Of a stretch of 64,000 nt of DNA, positions 20,341-26,969 are shown one piece after another. Position 1 is the first letter of the stretch. Each line of letters opens with the position of its first letter. The notes under the pieces were generated by a model, which had not been told where the DNA came from, made no database searches, and saw only the letters and a list, made by a program, of their open reading frames with translations. Both the position numbers and the translations under genes were made by a program. The stretch comes from Methanotrichaceae archaeon. GTDB taxonomy: Archaea > Halobacteriota > Methanosarcinia > Methanotrichales > Methanotrichaceae. Location: the NCBI GenBank assembly GCA_963748825.1, contig CAVVKN010000003.1:1-64000 (forward strand), written 5' to 3'.

Positions 20341-21768
20341 ATGAGAATTACAAAGTGTGCAACTATTGCAGCAAGTGCTTTCATATTATTGCTGCTATTA
20401 ACAACTATGGCAATGGCCGGCGATCCGAACGGCTCCAGTACCTATACCGACGATGTAGCTGGGCTGAAGATCGCCACAAACTTCGCATGGACCCTCGTAG
20501 CGGCCTTCCTGGTCTTCTTCATGCAGATGGGCTTTGCCCTGCTCGGTGCGGGTGCTCTGAGGGTGAAAAACACAGTCAACTACTTCACCAAAAGCTACAT
20601 GGACTTTTCCATAGGTGCCCTGGCCTACTGGGCGGTAGGTTTTGCCCTCATGTTTGGAGGCTCCAAGCTTTTTGCGGGTCTGGAAGACGGCAACAGCATC
20701 ATTGGATGGAGCGGGTGGTTCCTCACAGGAGATGCCTACGACGTCTCGACTATGATGTTCTGGATGTTCCAGGTCGTCTTCGCCGCTACTGCAGCAACCA
20801 TAGTTGCAGGTGCCTGCGCTGAAAGACTTAAGCTTCAGACTTATCTCATCTACAGCGGAATTGTTACCGCAATAATCTATAGCATCTACGGCCACTGGGT
20901 TTGGGGCGGCGGCTGGCTGTCAACTCTACCCTATGGTGTGGGCGCAAGGGACTTCGCTGGCTCAGGTGTGGTGCACGCTATCGGCGGTCTTGTCGCCCTG
21001 GCGGCCATAATGCTCCTCGGGCCGAGGATCGGCAAGTTCAACAAAGACGGTACACCCAATGCATTGCCCGGTCACGACGTGGGCTACATTGTCCTGGGAA
21101 CATTTGTGCTCTTCTTCGGCTGGTTCGGATTCAACCCGGGATCGACACTGGCAGCCACGGATCTTCGCATATCCGTGATAGCGGTCAATACCTTCCTGGC
21201 AGGATCTGCTGGTGCGGTGCTGGTCTGCTACTGGACATTCCTGAAGACGAAAAAAGTGGACATCGCCCTGACCTGCAACGGCGCTCTGGCGGGCCTGGTA
21301 GGAGTAACGGCGCCCTGTGCTTATATCCCCACCTGGTCGGCGGTAGTAATAGGATTGGTTGCTGGATTAATAGTAATGTACGGTATAAGGTTCAACGAAT
21401 GGGTGCTCAAAGTAGACGACCCTGTAGGTGCTGTGGCAGTGCACGGTTATAACGGCCTCTGGGGTCTGCTGGCTGTGGGAATCTTCGCAGATGGCACCTA
21501 CGGAGGAGTAAGCGGCCTTATCGTCGGCAATACCGGTCAGATGATAGCTCAGATCATTGACGTGGCAACTGTCGCTGTTTGGGCATTTGGAACCGGCTAT
21601 ATTCTGTTTGCCGTTCTAAAGCGCACCGTCGGCCTTAGGGCGTCAAGAGAAGAAGAGCTGACTGGAATGGATATAAGCGAGCACGGATATTCCGCATACC
21701 CGGAGTTTGTTATTCAAGAAACTGGTGAAAGCCATCCGGCAAATTCTCCTGAAAGGGTGAGAACATGA
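20341..21768 (+). CDS. amtB: Ammonium transporter, second copy with N-terminal signal-like extension
   Basis: DFAGSGVVH, FGWFGFNPGST, DDPVGAVAVHG, GMD..EHG..AYP. Confidence 0.95.
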   Translation: MRITKCATIAASAFILLLLLTTMAMAGDPNGSSTYTDDVAGLKIATNFAWTLVAAFLVFFMQMGFALLGAGALRVKNTVNYFTKSYMDFSIGALAYWAVGFALMFGGSKLFAGLEDGNSIIGWSGWFLTGDAYDVSTMMFWMFQVVFAATAATIVAGACAERLKLQTYLIYSGIVTAIIYSIYGHWVWGGGWLSTLPYGVGARDFAGSGVVHAIGGLVALAAIMLLGPRIGKFNKDGTPNALPGHDVGYIVLGTFVLFFGWFGFNPGSTLAATDLRISVIAVNTFLAGSAGAVLVCYWTFLKTKKVDIALTCNGALAGLVGVTAPCAYIPTWSAVVIGLVAGLIVMYGIRFNEWVLKVDDPVGAVAVHGYNGLWGLLAVGIFADGTYGGVSGLIVGNTGQMIAQIIDVATVAVWAFGTGYILFAVLKRTVGLRASREEELTGMDISEHGYSAYPEFVIQETGESHPANSPERVRT

Positions 21769-22103
21769 AAATGATACAGGTGATAATCAGACCCTCTAAG
21801 GTAGAGGACGTAAAAAATGCCCTTGATAAGGCAGGCTATGCAAGCCTGACCTCTATCGAGGTAAAAGGAAGAGGCAGGCAGAAAGGCATAACACAGATGT
21901 GGCGTGGCGAAGAATACAAAGTGGATATGCTCCCCAAGGTGAAGATAGAGATTGTAGTCCCGGATGAAAAACAAGACGAGGTAATTGAGCTGATAAGAAA
22001 TGCAGCATATACCGGGAGCATCGGTGACGGAAAGATCTTCGTCCTTCCTGTGGAAAAGACCATTCGGATCAGGACGGGCGAGACGAACGGCAAGGCTCTT
22101 TAG
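21765..22103 (+). CDS. glnK: PII nitrogen regulatory protein
   Basis: GRGRQKG..WRG.EY.VD.LPK, TG.IGDGKIF; ATGA overlap with amtB. Confidence 0.93.
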   Translation: MKMIQVIIRPSKVEDVKNALDKAGYASLTSIEVKGRGRQKGITQMWRGEEYKVDMLPKVKIEIVVPDEKQDEVIELIRNAAYTGSIGDGKIFVLPVEKTIRIRTGETNGKAL

Positions 22104-22284: not shown

Positions 22285-23304
22285 TTGACCTTCTTAGATG
22301 ACACTTCTGGCGAAGGTCAAGCGGAATTTGCAGGAGGGATAAGTACGAAAAAGTTAGGTATAATATTATTATTATTATTAATAGCCTTTTTAGCCAGTAT
22401 TGCATCTGCAGAATATACCAGTAAGAACAATCTCACTTTGGATATGAAACAGAGCGTGAGCGGCGAGGGCTACTTCATGACCTACAAGTACGCTAGAATG
22501 CCCAATACCCTTGGAGACTCCGGAATACTTGGACTCTCTGGAATAGGTAACGATGGGGTAGAACTCATGGATTATAGCCACGGAAGCGGCATGATCGATA
22601 CAGAATCGATATTGTCCACACAGACTTCCGACGAGACAAATTATGGAGTCGACAAGAGCGAGGACTACGATCCGGATCATTCGGAGGCTTTGAGCTGCAT
22701 TCAACTGAAAGAAGATAATGCCATGACGTACGGCCCAATAGGCTTCGGCGTAGGTACGGGATTTTACGCAGTTCGCCCGCTGCAGTTCAACTCCCTGTTG
22801 AAGGAGAAAACGTGGCTAAAGAATCGTGGATCTGCCACCTTGATGCACCATGAAGTGGAATATGCCCATGCTCTGGACAAGGAACTCGAAATCCTGGCCA
22901 AGGACTTCATCTCTGTGGATGATCCCAGTGTGAGCATGATGAACATCTCCGAGGATATGACCGCAGGCCGTGCGCATATCGGACTTTTGCAGGGAGATCC
23001 GGATCTGGTATCCAAAGAAGACGCCGATGGAAATATGTTCGTGGCAGCCACTGCCTGGAAGAAGCCGCTCGTGAACGTGGATGAAGATTACTGGGGAACT
23101 TACCACATCGAGAAGCTGATGAACATAACGGCATCAGTAGATGAGACCGAGGAAGATGATGACTGGCTACCCTGCTGCTCCGGCGGCTATCTGAGTATGC
23201 CCGAAGCATACCGGAAGGGCAGCAACGGATTTGGCTCCGATGTGACGGGTGTCTTTGATTGCACCTGCTTCAAGGCTCCGACCCAAGCCGAGTTTCCAAG
23301 GTAA
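22285..23304 (+). CDS. Hypothetical secreted protein with Cys-rich C-terminus; true start may be ACG at 22345
   Basis: Signal peptide KKLGIILLLLLIAFLASIASA; C-terminal WLPCC...FDCTC. Confidence 0.75.
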   Translation: MTFLDDTSGEGQAEFAGGISTKKLGIILLLLLIAFLASIASAEYTSKNNLTLDMKQSVSGEGYFMTYKYARMPNTLGDSGILGLSGIGNDGVELMDYSHGSGMIDTESILSTQTSDETNYGVDKSEDYDPDHSEALSCIQLKEDNAMTYGPIGFGVGTGFYAVRPLQFNSLLKEKTWLKNRGSATLMHHEVEYAHALDKELEILAKDFISVDDPSVSMMNISEDMTAGRAHIGLLQGDPDLVSKEDADGNMFVAATAWKKPLVNVDEDYWGTYHIEKLMNITASVDETEEDDDWLPCCSGGYLSMPEAYRKGSNGFGSDVTGVFDCTCFKAPTQAEFPR

Positions 23305-23522: not shown

Positions 23523-23540
23523 AAAAACTCCCTGCGGATC

Positions 23541-25256
23541 TCAGGAGCGTTCCTCCTTCTCCAGCCTTTCACGAGCTTTCTGCGCTTGAGAGGCCATGGG
23601 GCTTCTCAATTCCAGGAATAGAACCTCAGCCTGTTTGATCAGTTCCAGTGCTCTGCCCAGATGGCCTTCTTTCTCTTCCAGGAGCGAAGACTGCGCTAAG
23701 GTGCTGGCCACTCCACTCTTGTCCCCCAGTTCCTGCTTGATTTTGAGACTCTCAGCGTACAGCCTCCGAGCCTCGCCCAGATCGCCGGTGTCCTGAGCCA
23801 TCATTCCCATCTGGTGAAGCGTGCTGGCCATTCCACTCTTGTTCCCCAGTTCCTGCTCGATTTTGAGACTCTCAGCGTACAGCCTCCGAGCCTCGCCCAG
23901 ATCGCCGGTGACGTAAGCCAAATTTCCCATCTGGTGAAGCGTGCTGGCCATTCCACTCTTGCCCCCCAGTTCCTGCTCGATTTTGAGACTCTCAGCGTAC
24001 AGCCTCCGAGCCTCGTCCAGATCGCCGATGTGCTGAGCCATCATTCCCATCTTGTGAAGCGTTCTGGCCATTCCACTCTTGTCCCCCAGTTCCTGCTTGA
24101 TTTTGAGACTCTCAGCGTACAGCCTCCGAGCCTCGCCCAGATCGCCGGTGTCCTGAGCCATCATTCCCATCTGGTGAAGCGTGCTGGCCACTCCACTCTT
24201 GTCCCCCAGTTCCTGCTCGATTTTGAGACTCTCAGCGTACAGCCTCCGAGCCTCGCCCAGATCGCCGGTGACGTAAGCCAAATTTCCCATCTGGTGAAGC
24301 GTGATGGCCACGCCTCTTTTGTCCCCCAGTTCCTGCCCGATTTTGAGGCTCTCTGAGTACAGCCTCCGAGCCTCGCCCAGATCGCCGGTGATGTAAGCCA
24401 AATTTCCCATCTGGTGAAGCGTGTTGGCCACGCCTCTTTTGTCCCCCAGCTCCTGGTTTGCCTTGAGACTCTCAGCGTACAGTCGCTGAGCCTCATCATA
24501 CCCCCCAAGCAAATAACGAAGATTTCCCTGCCTTTGGAGAAGTGCCGCCATGGATCGATCCTCCCTTTCACCTCTAGGCATTTCTCGGTAATCCCTGATC
24601 AGCCCATCCAGAGCAGCTGCACGTTCTCTCTTTTCAGCCAGACTCAAGCGGTCGGCTTGTGTATCCTGTATGATCGTCTTCTCGACGGAAGCCATCAATT
24701 TCTTCTCAGGAGAGAGTTCGAATACGCCGCTGCGCCATCCCCAGAAGTCCGGTGCTTCCCTGGCCAAACGGGTCAGTGCATAATCAGGTAGCCAGATGAG
24801 AACGGGACAGGAGAACGATTTAGGAAAATTTTCACGTGATTGATTCAACTCATCGAGAGCTGGTGCAAGACCCTCCGAGGGCACAGAATGCTCAAAGCCT
24901 AAGACCATGACTGCTCTTTTTCCCGCATAATCAGCTTTATCCGCCTCCAGTGCTTGCAGGATGGCTCTCCTCAAGCTCGAAACCGGCCCCATTAGCACCA
25001 ATGTGATGATTTTCGCTTCACCTGTCAGTATTTCCCTCAGTTTGGCCGCCATCTGGCGACTCTGAATAGGCTGGTTGCACTTGACAAAGCCCAGGCGAAA
25101 GCCCTCTGCCAGACGGATGAGGCTTGCCATTTGAAGCAATATATCCTGATTTTGAGGTGATATTTCCTCTTCACCTAAGAGAGGTTGCTGCGGGGAAAAG
25201 TCCGCGCTGGCCGGTTCCGTCTTGACCGCGAACTTACTCAATTTGTCTCCAGGCAT
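23541..25256 (-). CDS. TPR protein (40-aa repeats) with N-terminal degenerate P-loop-like domain
   Basis: LNQSRENF, VLIWLP, APDFWGWRSGVFE, then about 7 repeats of EARRLYAESLKIxQELGDKSGxAxTLHQMG. Confidence 0.9.
   Translation of the reverse strand: MPGDKLSKFAVKTEPASADFSPQQPLLGEEEISPQNQDILLQMASLIRLAEGFRLGFVKCNQPIQSRQMAAKLREILTGEAKIITLVLMGPVSSLRRAILQALEADKADYAGKRAVMVLGFEHSVPSEGLAPALDELNQSRENFPKSFSCPVLIWLPDYALTRLAREAPDFWGWRSGVFELSPEKKLMASVEKTIIQDTQADRLSLAEKRERAAALDGLIRDYREMPRGEREDRSMAALLQRQGNLRYLLGGYDEAQRLYAESLKANQELGDKRGVANTLHQMGNLAYITGDLGEARRLYSESLKIGQELGDKRGVAITLHQMGNLAYVTGDLGEARRLYAESLKIEQELGDKSGVASTLHQMGMMAQDTGDLGEARRLYAESLKIKQELGDKSGMARTLHKMGMMAQHIGDLDEARRLYAESLKIEQELGGKSGMASTLHQMGNLAYVTGDLGEARRLYAESLKIEQELGNKSGMASTLHQMGMMAQDTGDLGEARRLYAESLKIKQELGDKSGVASTLAQSSLLEEKEGHLGRALELIKQAEVLFLELRSPMASQAQKARERLEKEERS
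23701..24495. repeat. Tandem array of about 6.6 copies of a 120-bp near-identical coding repeat
   Basis: agcctccgagcctcg(c/t)ccagatcgccg at 23761, 23881, 24001, 24121, 24241, 24361; degenerate copy at 24481. Confidence 0.97.
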
Positions 25257-26586
25257 CCTTGAACTCCGCCAGCTCTTTCACAGCAGGATGAACATCGCAC
25301 CAGCGCTCTCCATTCATATACTCCAGCACGCTAAGATTGTAGAGCATAGCCTGGTGCGGGGTATCATTTCGTACCTGCTTATTTTTGGCCACTTTGGCCA
25401 GAAGGTCAAAATGCTCATCCGGGACCATGCGTCCGTACTCATTGATTAAACGTCGAAATGCCTTTTCCGCTACCTTTTTGGAGATAGGAATTGTTCCACC
25501 TTCCGCCTGGTCCAGCTCAACAGTGTAGCCAAGCATCCGTATGAAATCCCGCAGCATCCCGCCGCTCTTTTCGGCTAAAAAATCCACAACGCCCTTCTGG
25601 AAAAGCGACTCGACATCGATCCTTTTCCTTGCCACATCACAGAGAAGATCGATGCCCTCCTGGCAAGGCGATCCATCTTGCTCCTCGACTTTTATCATGG
25701 GCAGGATTTCATAGTTGGGGAAGGCTCCGGCCAGTTGAGTGGCCTTGAGGGAGTAGAACATGGATATGGGGACAGTGTAGACTATGTGCCCATCCAGAGC
25801 TTTGAGCTGTTCGGCATGCTCCAGATAGAGGGCATCATGGGTTGTTCTTCCTGTCTTTTCATCCAGTACCCGCAGGACAATGCGATCCAGGTTATCGATG
25901 ATTAGCACCAGATCCTGATAGCCCTTCTTTTGGATCTCGGGAAGAGCAGCCCGGATGAACTCATTGATCCGCTCGATTAGTGGATAGATTTGGGGGTCCA
26001 GCGAGAGACGGATCTCCTTTCGGATCTCGTGACCGGTGCGGATTTGGCCGGTGATGCGGGCCAGCAATTTGGCAATTATTGGAAGAGGGGCTGGCGCATT
26101 CAATCCCAATTCGAATTCTGTCTTGAGAGCCGCCTCCATGACAACTTCATCCTTCCATCCGTAGACCACTTCGGCAAACCACATCAGGATGCCTTTGGAG
26201 AGACGTTCATCTATCTTGATGCCCTTCTCGGATAGTGTACGCTCCAGACGCTTGATTATAGATAGGAGAAGATCGGTATAAACCAGATCGCCCATATCAA
26301 TATCATCATCAGCGGCAAAGTAAACTACCAGGAATTTCTCCCTCTCCAGCCGATTTGCCAGGCGCAGAAGCTCTGTGGACTTTCCACAACCCCGGTGTCC
26401 GCTGATCAATTGAGACGTTGAGCGGCTTGAGCCTTCAATTCGTAAAGCCAAAAGTCCCACAACATCCGTTCCACCCCTCACCTGGCTGCAGTCAACCCAA
26501 CGGGGATCTCCGCTTTCCAGAGGGTCCAGCTTTACAGCATTGTAGGCATCTTTCAAATTAGTTGCCGGAGGGTCGCAGTTCATCAT
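25234..26586 (-). CDS. P-loop ATPase, STAND/AAA-like
   Basis: Walker A GHRGCGKST, Walker B LIIDNLDR, SGG..RDF, C-terminal WCDVHP; overlaps the TPR gene. Confidence 0.88.
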   Translation of the reverse strand: MMNCDPPATNLKDAYNAVKLDPLESGDPRWVDCSQVRGGTDVVGLLALRIEGSSRSTSQLISGHRGCGKSTELLRLANRLEREKFLVVYFAADDDIDMGDLVYTDLLLSIIKRLERTLSEKGIKIDERLSKGILMWFAEVVYGWKDEVVMEAALKTEFELGLNAPAPLPIIAKLLARITGQIRTGHEIRKEIRLSLDPQIYPLIERINEFIRAALPEIQKKGYQDLVLIIDNLDRIVLRVLDEKTGRTTHDALYLEHAEQLKALDGHIVYTVPISMFYSLKATQLAGAFPNYEILPMIKVEEQDGSPCQEGIDLLCDVARKRIDVESLFQKGVVDFLAEKSGGMLRDFIRMLGYTVELDQAEGGTIPISKKVAEKAFRRLINEYGRMVPDEHFDLLAKVAKNKQVRNDTPHQAMLYNLSVLEYMNGERWCDVHPAVKELAEFKDAWRQIE

Positions 26587-26723
26587 GAGTAGTTGTTATT
26601 CGATTTTCGTATAAATATTACTATGAAAATTACTGCGGAAATCAGAAAAGATGAATGATGCCATGAATGATGCCTCAAGAAGCAAAATAAGAAAAAAGGT
26701 GCCGATAGGGTGTTTTTGAGAGT

Positions 26724-26969
26724 TCAGTGCTTAACCGCCTCGCATCCCCTCTCCTTCGTGCGCACCCGCACCACGTCCTCCACCGGGTAGACGAAGATCT
26801 TGCCGTCTCCTGCCTCGCCCGTTTGGGCAAACTCGCAGATCAGGTCGATGACCGCTTCTGCATCCTTGTCCTCAACCACCATCTTCTGCTTCATCTTCTG
26901 CAGAAACTCCACCCGGTAGTCTCCGGCTCGTCGCTGCAAGGTGACGCCCTTCTGCCGGCCCCTGCCTAG
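26724..26969 (-). pseudogene. glnK: 5'-truncated, degenerate glnK fragment
   Basis: GRGRQKGVTLQRRAGDYRVEFLQK...TGEAGDGKIFVYPV; the first 35 or so codons are replaced by AT-rich DNA. Confidence 0.8.

Follow-up and report, generated by a model that had tools for sequence, protein, structure and literature searches.

Molecular switches that combine an active with an inactive ATPase have been described in several forms, and the nearest described concept for the locus treated here, a pair of overlapping genes (A and B) at positions 23,541-26,586 of a 64,000-nt stretch from a Methanotrichaceae archaeon (contig CAVVKN010000003.1 of assembly GCA_963748825.1, positions 1 to 64,000; hereafter the window), is the nSTAND2 two-gene system. 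This is a mobile two-gene operon, in which both products are of the STAND type (ATPases that act in signal transduction and have numerous domains) and one has eroded NTP-binding motifs (PMC8195603). Active and inactive subunits are predicted by its authors to join in a hetero-multimer; variable effectors (GT4, HEPN) are attached to the inactive module, and the two modules are members of a single family near the CR-ATPases and S29/DAP3 (PMC8195603). Inactive STAND-type modules also occur as the predicted sensing and assembly components iSTAND and iSTAND2 of the MoxR-vWA ternary systems, which the relevant passages of two papers present as NTP-dependent conflict systems prevalent in multicellular prokaryotes, working with a MoxR protein of the AAA+ class (ATPases associated with diverse cellular activities) and a vWA protein and carrying N-terminal effector-associated domains (PMC7159879, PMC8195603). 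In single-chain STAND proteins and NOD-like receptors (NLRs) with tetratricopeptide repeat (TPR) sensors, such as MalT, Avs and the fungal NB-ARC-TPR proteins, nucleotide-binding domain, lid, winged helix and TPR sensor follow one another in this order. In the origin recognition complex (ORC) and in clamp loaders, active AAA+ subunits are as a rule combined with dead ones in a heteromer. Such heteromers are also treated in a passage of section 19 of PMC8195603.

The window comes from an archaeal genome of 2.88 Mb in 25 contigs (G000), whose nearest public relatives are labelled Methanothrix or Methanotrichaceae. An earlier note on this DNA, made from the sequence alone, had described two overlapping genes, the first with ATPase motifs and the second with a Walker-A-less domain in front of repeats, and the open reading frames (ORFs) bear out this layout. 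The principal features of the pair are the following:

25234-26586, minus strand: gene A, a P-loop ATPase of 450 aa (ORF call)
23541-25256, minus strand: gene B, 571 aa, a Walker-A-less alpha/beta N-terminal domain (the N-domain) followed by seven 40-aa TPR units (ORF call)
25234-25256, minus strand: overlap of 23 nt between the end of gene A and the start of gene B, the ATG of B lying 23 nt before the stop of A (read from the sequence)
24702-25169, minus strand: N-domain of gene B, residues about 30-185, predicted degenerate AAA+ fold (alignment and model)
23592-24575, minus strand: TPR region of gene B, residues about 228-555 (Pfam TPR_12, 1.2e-47)
23701-24494, minus strand: tandem array in the DNA, period 120 nt, 6.6 copies, 90% matches (Tandem Repeats Finder)

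The explanation that we favour, with about an even chance of being right, is that A and B constitute a two-gene operon whose products act as one heteromeric, NLR-like molecular switch. Such a switch would draw NLR-like logic from two chains and would use a dead ATPase domain as the coupling piece. Conceptually, the pair agrees with the nSTAND2 type in having an active and an inactive STAND-like gene in one operon. It differs in that B is fused to TPRs and not to variable effectors, that A and the N-domain share no profile similarity whereas the nSTAND2 modules are of one family, and that the inactive domain is reduced to its alpha/beta core; Pfam nSTAND2 itself matches neither protein at E <= 0.1. 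Unlike in the single-chain STAND proteins and NLRs, the sensor lies on a second polypeptide, behind a pseudo-ATPase domain and without an N-terminal effector. We describe the pair, whose function we infer, as an uncharacterised, widespread and accessory two-chain NLR-like ATPase/pseudo-ATPase sensor.

An ATPase and a partner without Walker A

Gene A has all the motifs by which it had been recognised, namely Walker A (GHRGCGKST, residues 63-71), Walker B (LVLIIDNLD, 226-234), the lid motif SGGxxR (SGGMLRD, 342-348) and WCDVHP (429-434), the last of which lies 16 residues from the end and is thus not strictly terminal as had been stated. Residues G63, R65, G66, G68, K69, S70, T71 and D231 are invariant in 21 homologues. 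The AlphaFold model, built on 21 homologues and reaching a predicted local distance difference test (pLDDT) score of 88.8, consists of N-terminal helices, an AAA+ core, a lid and, at the C-terminus, a winged helix. Between Walker A and Walker B, about 125 aa form a helical insert that distinguishes gene A from Cdc6/ORC and the PF01637 ATPases. The polypeptide ends after the winged helix and carries neither sensor repeats nor an effector, the TPRs being on B.

Structural comparison places this model close to replication initiators and to the STAND proteins. Foldseek matches it to ORC/Cdc6 (7e-7) and the RADAR ATPase RdrA (1.4e-6) and also to SSO1545. In VIA-align, the best whole-length matches are Cdc6 (7jgr_G, Z 15.6, root-mean-square deviation 3.4, 246 aligned) and the PF01637 ATPases PAB2304 (2qen, Z 15.1, 302 aligned, residues 16-444) and SSO1545 (2fna, Z 14.8), followed by TnsC, plant NLRs (Z 13.0-11.7), MalT (8bob, 11.4), Dark (11.3), Avs3 (10.9), RdrA and BrxC. 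The lid and winged helix come directly after the NTPase core; the alignments to 2qen and 2fna cover residues 16-444, and those to the NOD modules of plant NLRs cover 24-450. Sequence comparison is less telling. Pfam scores remain under their cut-offs for ATPase_2 (PF01637; 27 bits vs 33.2), AAA_16 (25.9 vs 32.6), nSTAND5 (20.3 vs 34) and NPHP3_N (20.4 vs 24.8), as does the score for the Sll1717 family (27.4 bits, cut-off 75). Many homologues carry a precomputed PF01637 match. Neither NB-ARC nor NACHT matches gene A at E <= 0.1 in Pfam, and a search against solved structures returned only matches at the level of the P-loop (FtsY 7.8e-5, DNA polymerase III gamma/tau, KAP NTPase 0.0029, mS29 0.3-0.7). 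Judged by its model, gene A encodes an active ATPase in the structural neighbourhood of Cdc6/ORC, the PF01637-type ATPases and STAND, and is a member of no curated STAND family. The earlier label of a STAND-like ATPase, taken in the sense of Leipe et al. 2004, is thus apt for the intact Walker A and B motifs, the lid and the winged helix, and has to be narrowed in that the closest structures are Cdc6/ORC and PF01637-type ATPases and that no curated STAND family in Pfam passes its threshold.

These matches bear on a first alternative, in which the pair is a non-immune, ligand-gated ATPase of the MalT/AfsR kind distributed over two chains, with TPRs that sense an endogenous metabolite or protein and a winged helix in A that binds DNA or a host target and regulates genes, perhaps nitrogen-related ones. 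MalT is among the matches of A, the best of them, Cdc6/ORC, bind DNA through the winged helix, and Pfam TPR_MalT matches gene B at 3.5e-14. The winged-helix region of A is acidic, however, with a net charge of -2 and an isoelectric point of 5.9, so that DNA binding is not favoured, and no helix-turn-helix is present beyond it. We hold this alternative to be unlikely, and return to it with the flanking genes.

The three motifs previously read in gene B are likewise in place: LNQSRENF at residues 137-144, VLIWLP at 152-157 and APDFWGWRSGVFE at 168-180. Residues 1-29 are predicted to be disordered, and the N-domain core, modelled at pLDDT >90, has five strands alternating with helices (54-59, 81-88, 113-119, 151-156 and 175-180). 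The Walker A signature GxxxxGK[ST] is absent from gene B, and the position of the P-loop is P-loop-free in all 22 aligned homologues. Instead, a CNxP motif (CNQPIQSR) follows strand 1, and at least 90% of the 22 share its N61 and P63. Further conserved motifs are GFE after strand 3 (E122), LNxxR (N138, R141) and WLPDYALTRLAREAPDFWxWRSGVFE (D170, W172, W174, R175).

Outside the TPRs, no Pfam family matches gene B at E <= 0.1, and a sequence search of the N-domain against solved structures gave nothing meaningful. Its model is more informative. Foldseek finds 32 matches at E <= 1e-3, the best at 1.1e-4, and those listed are all AAA+, including RAD17-RFC, NSF/Sec18, TnsC, ORC2, CbbX and MuB. A VIA search, which is independent of Foldseek, gives 50 listed matches, every one of them AAA+ or STAND (Z 12.3-8.7): TnsC scores 12.3, ORC3 11.5, ORC2 11.0 and Avs5 9.8, NLRs are also present, and the list includes ORC subunits that are inactive as well as a delta-prime-like protein (7jgr_C, 5uj8_A, 2gno_A). 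On the evidence of the model, the N-domain is a degenerate AAA+ domain that would be unable to bind nucleotide in the classical way, and the P-loop-type fold that had been postulated for it is found by both searches. The possibility that it is a recent duplicate of gene A was considered and rejected because the two show no detectable profile similarity, a profile-profile comparison of their alignments giving a probability of 0.4%.

The fold matches of the N-domain include NSF, Sec18 and Pex1/6, and the TPR region shows similarity to the Pfam SNAP family (23.8 bits vs a cut-off of 25 in the window; E <= 1e-5 in 26 of 43 partners). From this one could derive an AAA+ remodelling machine with a TPR adaptor, as NSF works with SNAP, acting on a host substrate, e.g., in cell-envelope or filament assembly. 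The SNAP matches are, however, generic TPR similarity, and A, with its winged helix, aligns best to the initiator and STAND side (Cdc6, the PF01637 type, TnsC, NLRs) and not to classical unfoldases. A patchy distribution and decay, described below, are also contrary to a structural housekeeping role, and we regard such a machine as very improbable.

Strict pairing and a predicted complex

The heteromeric switch presupposes that the two genes belong together, and their association has been followed from both sides. Seeding with gene A only gave 91 loci, comprising 10 from species genomes, the best 80 of 555 metagenomic stretches (31-94% identity) and the second copy of the genome, and the ORFs downstream were searched with a hidden Markov model of the N-domain alone. 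All 80 seeded loci with at least 300 nt downstream of A encode an N-domain protein directly downstream on the same strand, a count in which two loci (L073 and L074) are identical and about 16 are close Methanothrix relatives. This ORF mostly overlaps A or starts within 17 nt of it. The 11 remaining loci end too soon, two of them still showing the start of a partner. Among five further archaeal loci of 30-36% identity, the partner is present in the four with enough room, which brings the overall count to 84 of 84. TPR_12 was found in 41 of the 43 complete partners adjoining an A gene. From the other side, the N-domain has a match in 35 of 101 genomes of the family Methanotrichaceae, and in 32 of these a match to A lies at adjoining coordinates; the other three are a relic of 36 residues (G036) and two weak matches. 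The window genome itself contains exactly two copies of A and two of the N-domain, forming two pairs. The expectation that the two genes would co-occur elsewhere has thus proved correct.

The second pair of this genome, on contig 5 (L002, 50-2748, minus strand), consists of a 422-aa ATPase that is 29% identical to A and a partner of 496 aa that shares the N-domain but has other TPR units, the two genes again overlapping. One metagenomic contig carries two ATPase/partner pairs in tandem (L091, 1029-6894), and one genome of the phylum sample has five ATPase matches (G242), both being cases of local family expansion.

A split gene was also considered as the origin of the pair and rejected, as among the best 150 of 1531 N-domain representatives there is no match that follows an ATPase-sized N-terminal region. 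Because no fused form is seen, the term split NLR, under which the pair had been introduced, is a misnomer, and the two-gene state is the native one.

In addition to the genomic linkage, the physical association of the two products has been modelled. Gene A and residues 1-235 of gene B were predicted together with ATP in three runs, accompanied by three controls. The interaction prediction score from aligned errors (ipSAE) was 0.86 in the three runs, compared with 0.24 for the best control; the calibration mark for this score, reached by 58 of 80 solved complexes and by 2 of 110 mismatched pairs, is only approximate here (own alignments, ATP included). The runs share at least 94% of their contacts, and the pLDDT of the partner is 77. 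On the side of A, the predicted interface is made up of residues 65-66 in the P-loop, a conserved acidic loop (91-100) that follows strand 2, residues 235 and 237 behind Walker B, the lid around SGGxxR (346-361) and residues 379-389; on the side of B, it is made up of the helix 38-52, the LNxxR region (135-145) and residues 161-180. Many of these positions are conserved. R65, G66, D100 and R386 of A and N138, D170, W172 and R175 of B are invariant, and nearly invariant are L11, D93, D97 and R346 of A together with L161, R166, P169, W174, S176, G177, V178 and E180 of B.

In AAA+ assemblies, the nucleotide face of one protomer meets its neighbour, which often inserts an arginine, and the predicted arrangement is of this kind. 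Since many AAA+ assemblies have been solved, part of the score may be likeness, and the interface could partly reflect the model's memory of such structures, which weakens the case for the proposed switch. Among solved structures, neither chain has a relative by sequence that goes beyond a match at the P-loop. Even so, we consider an obligate complex of A and B highly probable, and the co-assembly of active and inactive NTPase domains suggested earlier finds support in this prediction.

The way in which the switch may operate can be outlined from these data. The pseudo-ATPase domain of B would dock, through its invariant LNxxR and APDFWxWRSGVFE surface, on the P-loop and lid face of A, where it would occupy the place of the neighbouring protomer in AAA+ assemblies. 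There it might supply a trans-acting arginine (R175 or R166), or else cap A against self-assembly. The ligand of the TPR array would be variable, in all likelihood a protein of foreign or non-self origin, and its binding would change the A-B interface and with it the nucleotide state of A and its higher-order assembly. The pair itself encodes no output, which would have to come from the act of assembly or from a trans-acting partner; a few rare relatives have B fused to a CHAT protease or to another STAND module.

Repeat diversification and patchy distribution

The near-identical TPRs reported for gene B correspond to the 120-nt array in the DNA and form, in the protein, seven units from residue 259 onwards, each exactly 40 aa long. 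Between units 3 and 6 of the window gene there are 15 variable nucleotide sites in 11 codons, and all 15 change the residue, none being synonymous, where random single changes on the unit would give a synonymous share of 0.228 (crude P ~0.02). Pairwise, these units have a synonymous divergence (dS) of 0 and a nonsynonymous divergence (dN) of 0.02-0.15; units 1 and 2 are older, with dS 0.16-0.21 relative to the remaining units. The test is a crude one, with few sites, units that are not independent and gene conversion ignored, and its force in favour of an NLR-like sensor is reduced accordingly. Across 216 units from 69 orthologues, the structural positions are nearly fixed and the entropy peaks at unit positions 3, 9, 20, 27, 30, 31, 32 and 36, the spacing of i, i+4 and i+7 suggesting that variation falls on one helix face. 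The lengths of the orthologues cluster near 450, 490, 530 and 570 aa, about one unit apart.

All this recalls the fungal NLRs, for which a passage of PMC4986451 describes internally conserved TPR motifs of 42 aa, polymorphism in repeat number and positive selection on the concave face. The units found here are of the same 40-42 aa class, and they are likewise internally conserved, have few hypervariable positions and change in copy number. As judged from the sequences, the array of gene B diversifies fast, as in the fungal NLRs, so that a concerted and diversifying evolution of repeats known from fungi would here be met in an archaeon. Diversification with gain and loss of units, like paralogous pairs, patchiness and frequent decay, would be unusual for a housekeeping regulator of the MalT kind. 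Two further ORFs in this region, 23814-24356 (plus strand, 180 aa) and 24161-24571 (minus strand, 136 aa), are by-products of the repeat array and unlikely to be genes.

Beyond the pair in its usual form, both proteins belong to large families. The N-domain (residues 31-185) has 1531 representatives at E <= 1e-3 in a library clustered at 50% identity, 352 of them at E <= 1e-10, and the ATPase falls into at least 1821 clusters at 90% identity among 8000 candidates scored. In nearly all of the best 150 representatives, the N-domain is N-terminal. For the 43 complete partners adjoining A, the listing covers the 25 commonest families; nine other longer or mid-length partners scanned singly contain TPRs only, and in a survey of partners next to A for swapped C-terminal domains only L061 (CHAT) was found. 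Rare fusions are more varied. CHAT occurs in the N-domain proteins P0345 and L061, the latter with A directly upstream; NB-ARC and TPR are joined to the N-domain in P0357 and P0339; P0308 combines it with Metallophos, NA-iREase3, NACHT, pentapeptide and WD40; and nSTAND1 and FGE-sulfatase are joined to it in P0365 and P0355, respectively. For these variants, the genomic context is known for L061 only. The fusions tie the N-domain to the NLR-like conflict network, where it takes the slot of effector or adaptor domains.

This position favours a second alternative, according to which B is a docking adaptor and A the shared effector or amplifier, sensors of several kinds (TPR only, NB-ARC-TPR, NACHT-WD40, TPR-CHAT) with an N-terminal pseudo-AAA+ domain recruiting or releasing A, which then self-assembles and, for example, binds nucleic acid or burns ATP. 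The N-terminal placement, ahead of a complete NB-ARC-TPR in P0357 and P0339 and of NACHT-WD40 in P0308, agrees with it, and so do the defence ATPases RdrA and BrxC among the structural relatives of A. In the predicted complex, moreover, the N-domain binds the nucleotide face of A; AAA+ proteins use this face for self-assembly, and therefore the binding of B and the assembly of A with itself could exclude each other. Among the fusion variants, however, adjacency to A is known only for L061, and from A no toxic or catalytic activity except that of an ATPase can be read. This alternative also overlaps with the heteromeric switch and differs from it only in the chain that gives the output; we assign it a low probability.

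The distribution of the pair is patchy. Matches to A, both paralogue types pooled, occur in 42 of 101 sampled Methanotrichaceae genomes, and the orthologue of the window copy (68-96% identity) in about 14 of 54 sampled genomes of the genus. In the sample of the phylum, A matches 9 of 201 genomes at E <= 1e-10, and outside the family no match exceeds 36% identity. Where present, the genes are often broken: in-frame stops are found in the orthologues of G092, G053 and G094, the copy of G096 is heavily decayed, partners are broken in G066 and G045, and G036 retains the relic already mentioned. In these genomes and in the loci L007, L010 and L024, the damage takes the form of stops, splits into two ORFs or short relics, decay thus being repeated and independent. 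The pair is accessory and patchy and not core, as had been anticipated.

Several observations concern its origin. A sequence labelled Anaerolineae bacterium (P0056) is 50% identical to A of the window, and in the tree the window clade is sister to the group containing this sequence, and the second copy of the same genome falls, with the remaining archaeal copies, into a group far from it; the tree is a quick FastTree reconstruction, midpoint rooted, without support values, with most tips unlabelled and with L097 and other ATPase pieces shorter than 380 aa left out, and it gives no donor. In the Atlas, the N-domain has bacterial clusters as its nearest neighbours when language-model features, as opposed to alignments, are compared, Cyanobacteriota being the commonest phylum where the source is known. 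A transfer between Bacteria and Methanothrix, in either direction, fits these sequence comparisons because of the identity to P0056, the placement in the tree and the bacterial Atlas clusters. Of the two earlier suggestions in this regard, horizontal acquisition is well backed as far as the accessory and laterally spread nature of the pair is concerned, and the suggestion of similar pairs in multicellular bacteria such as cyanobacteria agrees with the feature-based neighbours. In close Methanothrix relatives, however, the pair stands at one syntenic place beside amt/glnK, and this position fits vertical inheritance with loss as well as mobility, a point against the explanation that we favour.

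A conflict role weighed against the neighbourhood

A function of the pair in surveillance or conflict, which had been taken from the likeness to Avs and fungal NLRs, seems possible to us, although a little short of an even chance. It is suggested because of the architecture, the way in which the sensor evolves, a distribution that is patchy and marked by decay, and the domains to which the N-domain is joined in rare fusions. Much of what was searched for weighs against it. PADLOC-DB v2 gave no significant match, the best for A being PDC-S20 (E 0.0013, 16.1 bits) and B matching only generic TPR models, and the NCBIfam anti-phage model DS41_1 reached 18.7 bits vs a cut-off of 370. Pfam finds no effector domain, its matches in B being all to TPR families and those in A to P-loop families below threshold, and the absence of a nuclease or TIR effector was correctly noted before. 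The genomic surroundings were collected as 137 ORFs within 3.5 kb of the pair at 51 diverse loci, a set from which 17 loci (window relatives or duplicates), ORFs shorter than 120 aa and ORFs at contig ends are excluded and 29 further ORFs were dropped for size. These neighbours are heterogeneous and of a housekeeping kind, with DnaN, glycogen phosphorylase, Amt, radical SAM proteins and histidine kinases; individual defence models match one or two of the 137 each, and the 25 families met most often include none for defence and no transposase or integrase. Clustering of the flanking ORFs reveals no conserved third gene, only the synteny with amt and P-II in close Methanothrix relatives.

The same set of neighbours bears on the comparison with described systems. 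MoxR and vWA genes, the companions of iSTAND and iSTAND2, are found neither beside the pair in the window nor among the 25 commonest neighbour families, and unlike in the case of Cdc6/ORC there is no rule-like link to replication genes, DnaN accounting for 2 of the 137 ORFs. A bacterial locus of WOR-3 (L011, 2-1855, plus strand) carries a 617-aa ORF, open at the contig start, which ends 35 nt before the ATPase, and L009, L021 and L088 have similar ORFs close to the pair. In the literature, 198 defence-associated STAND clades are reported in a passage of PMC12803255. No description of an A/B pair was found in the passages covered, the survey supplements lying outside the search, and 'sll1717' appears in no paper.

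A more far-reaching proposal would be that immune sensors of an NLR-like, two-chain type form a class that is widespread but undescribed, with this pair as an example, and in which pseudo-AAA+ docking couples fast-evolving sensors (TPR arrays and, in variants, NB-ARC, NACHT or CHAT proteins) to a common Cdc6/ORC-like ATPase whose assembly is the antiviral output, the window copy having crossed between Bacteria and a filamentous methanogenic archaeon. If assembly of the ATPase were the output, the absence of an effector domain would be explained; taken as a whole, we find this proposal rather unlikely. Methanothrix is a key, filamentous methanogen of digesters and wetlands. If a role in defence or surveillance were true, the pair would add an effector-less type to the known ones, and, for defence, would give a handle on virus-host or cell-cell conflict in this genus; if it were a regulator instead, it would offer a clean ATPase/pseudo-ATPase heteromer for structural study.

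The regulatory alternative draws its further support from the surroundings of the pair in the window, for which the following features were recorded together with the putative transcription signals:

26724-26939, minus strand: 5'-truncated P-II (GlnB/GlnK) remnant, next to gene A on its upstream side; of the 102 positions in the Pfam P-II profile it retains 49-102
26610-26615, minus strand: TATA-box-like hexamer TTTATA, 24-29 nt upstream of the ATG of gene A (read from the sequence)
23530-23546, minus strand: short hairpin with a T-run behind it; its stem begins 3 nt short of where the gene B stop codon (23541-23543) ends and extends 11 nt past that codon (consensus match)
22285-23304, plus strand: intact 339-aa ORF convergent to gene B, with an N-terminal hydrophobic segment and without Pfam match
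20341-22103, plus strand: intact amt-glnK operon, encoding an ammonium transporter of 475 aa and a P-II protein of 112 aa, some 1.4 kb past the 3' end of gene B

As the intact amt-glnK operon and the P-II remnant flank the pair, it lies inside a nitrogen-uptake gene cluster in this lineage. Ammonium transporter and P-II genes flank it in close relatives too, and the commonest neighbour families are not defence-like, both of which would suit a regulator of nitrogen genes. In the relative L010, the P-II gene is intact (112 aa) and stops 31 nt short of the ATPase; L006 and L008 have an ammonium-transporter-like ORF immediately upstream of the ATPase and, at the P-II position, only an antisense ORF. 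The linkage is, however, confined to close Methanothrix and was not seen in distant loci, and no neighbour family recurs across diverse loci.

As regards the expression of the pair as an operon, the overlap of 22-23 nt is shared by Methanothrix relatives, and elsewhere the genes mostly overlap or are separated by at most 17 nt, overlaps being possibly overestimated because the ORF calls use the most upstream start. Translational coupling is suggested by the overlap of the end of gene A with the start of gene B. The hexamer TTTATA may be the archaeal promoter of a bicistronic mRNA that has a short leader or none; a sigma-70 promoter scan was uninformative, since it uses a bacterial consensus and the host is an archaeon. 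The hairpin after gene B is a weak candidate for the terminator of the two-gene operon, as the number of hairpin/T-run matches in the region (4) equals that expected from shuffles (3.8). Together, the two elements are consensus-level hints of a self-contained bicistronic unit. In three soil RNA runs (X2-X4), no contigs for the pair were found. Six short contigs from one metatranscriptome (X1) cover parts of both genes, mostly 95-99% alike and one 90-95%, and give a weak hint of expression, with DNA carry-over possible.

The spacer between the 339-aa ORF and gene B measures 236 nt in the window vs 16 nt in L008, and inspection by eye only found no gene remnant in it. The pair had been said to lie between two pseudogenes. 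This is true of the upstream side, where the P-II gene is truncated; on the downstream side, the neighbour is the intact 339-aa ORF, to which similar ORFs of 332 aa correspond at the same position in the relatives L008 and L014.

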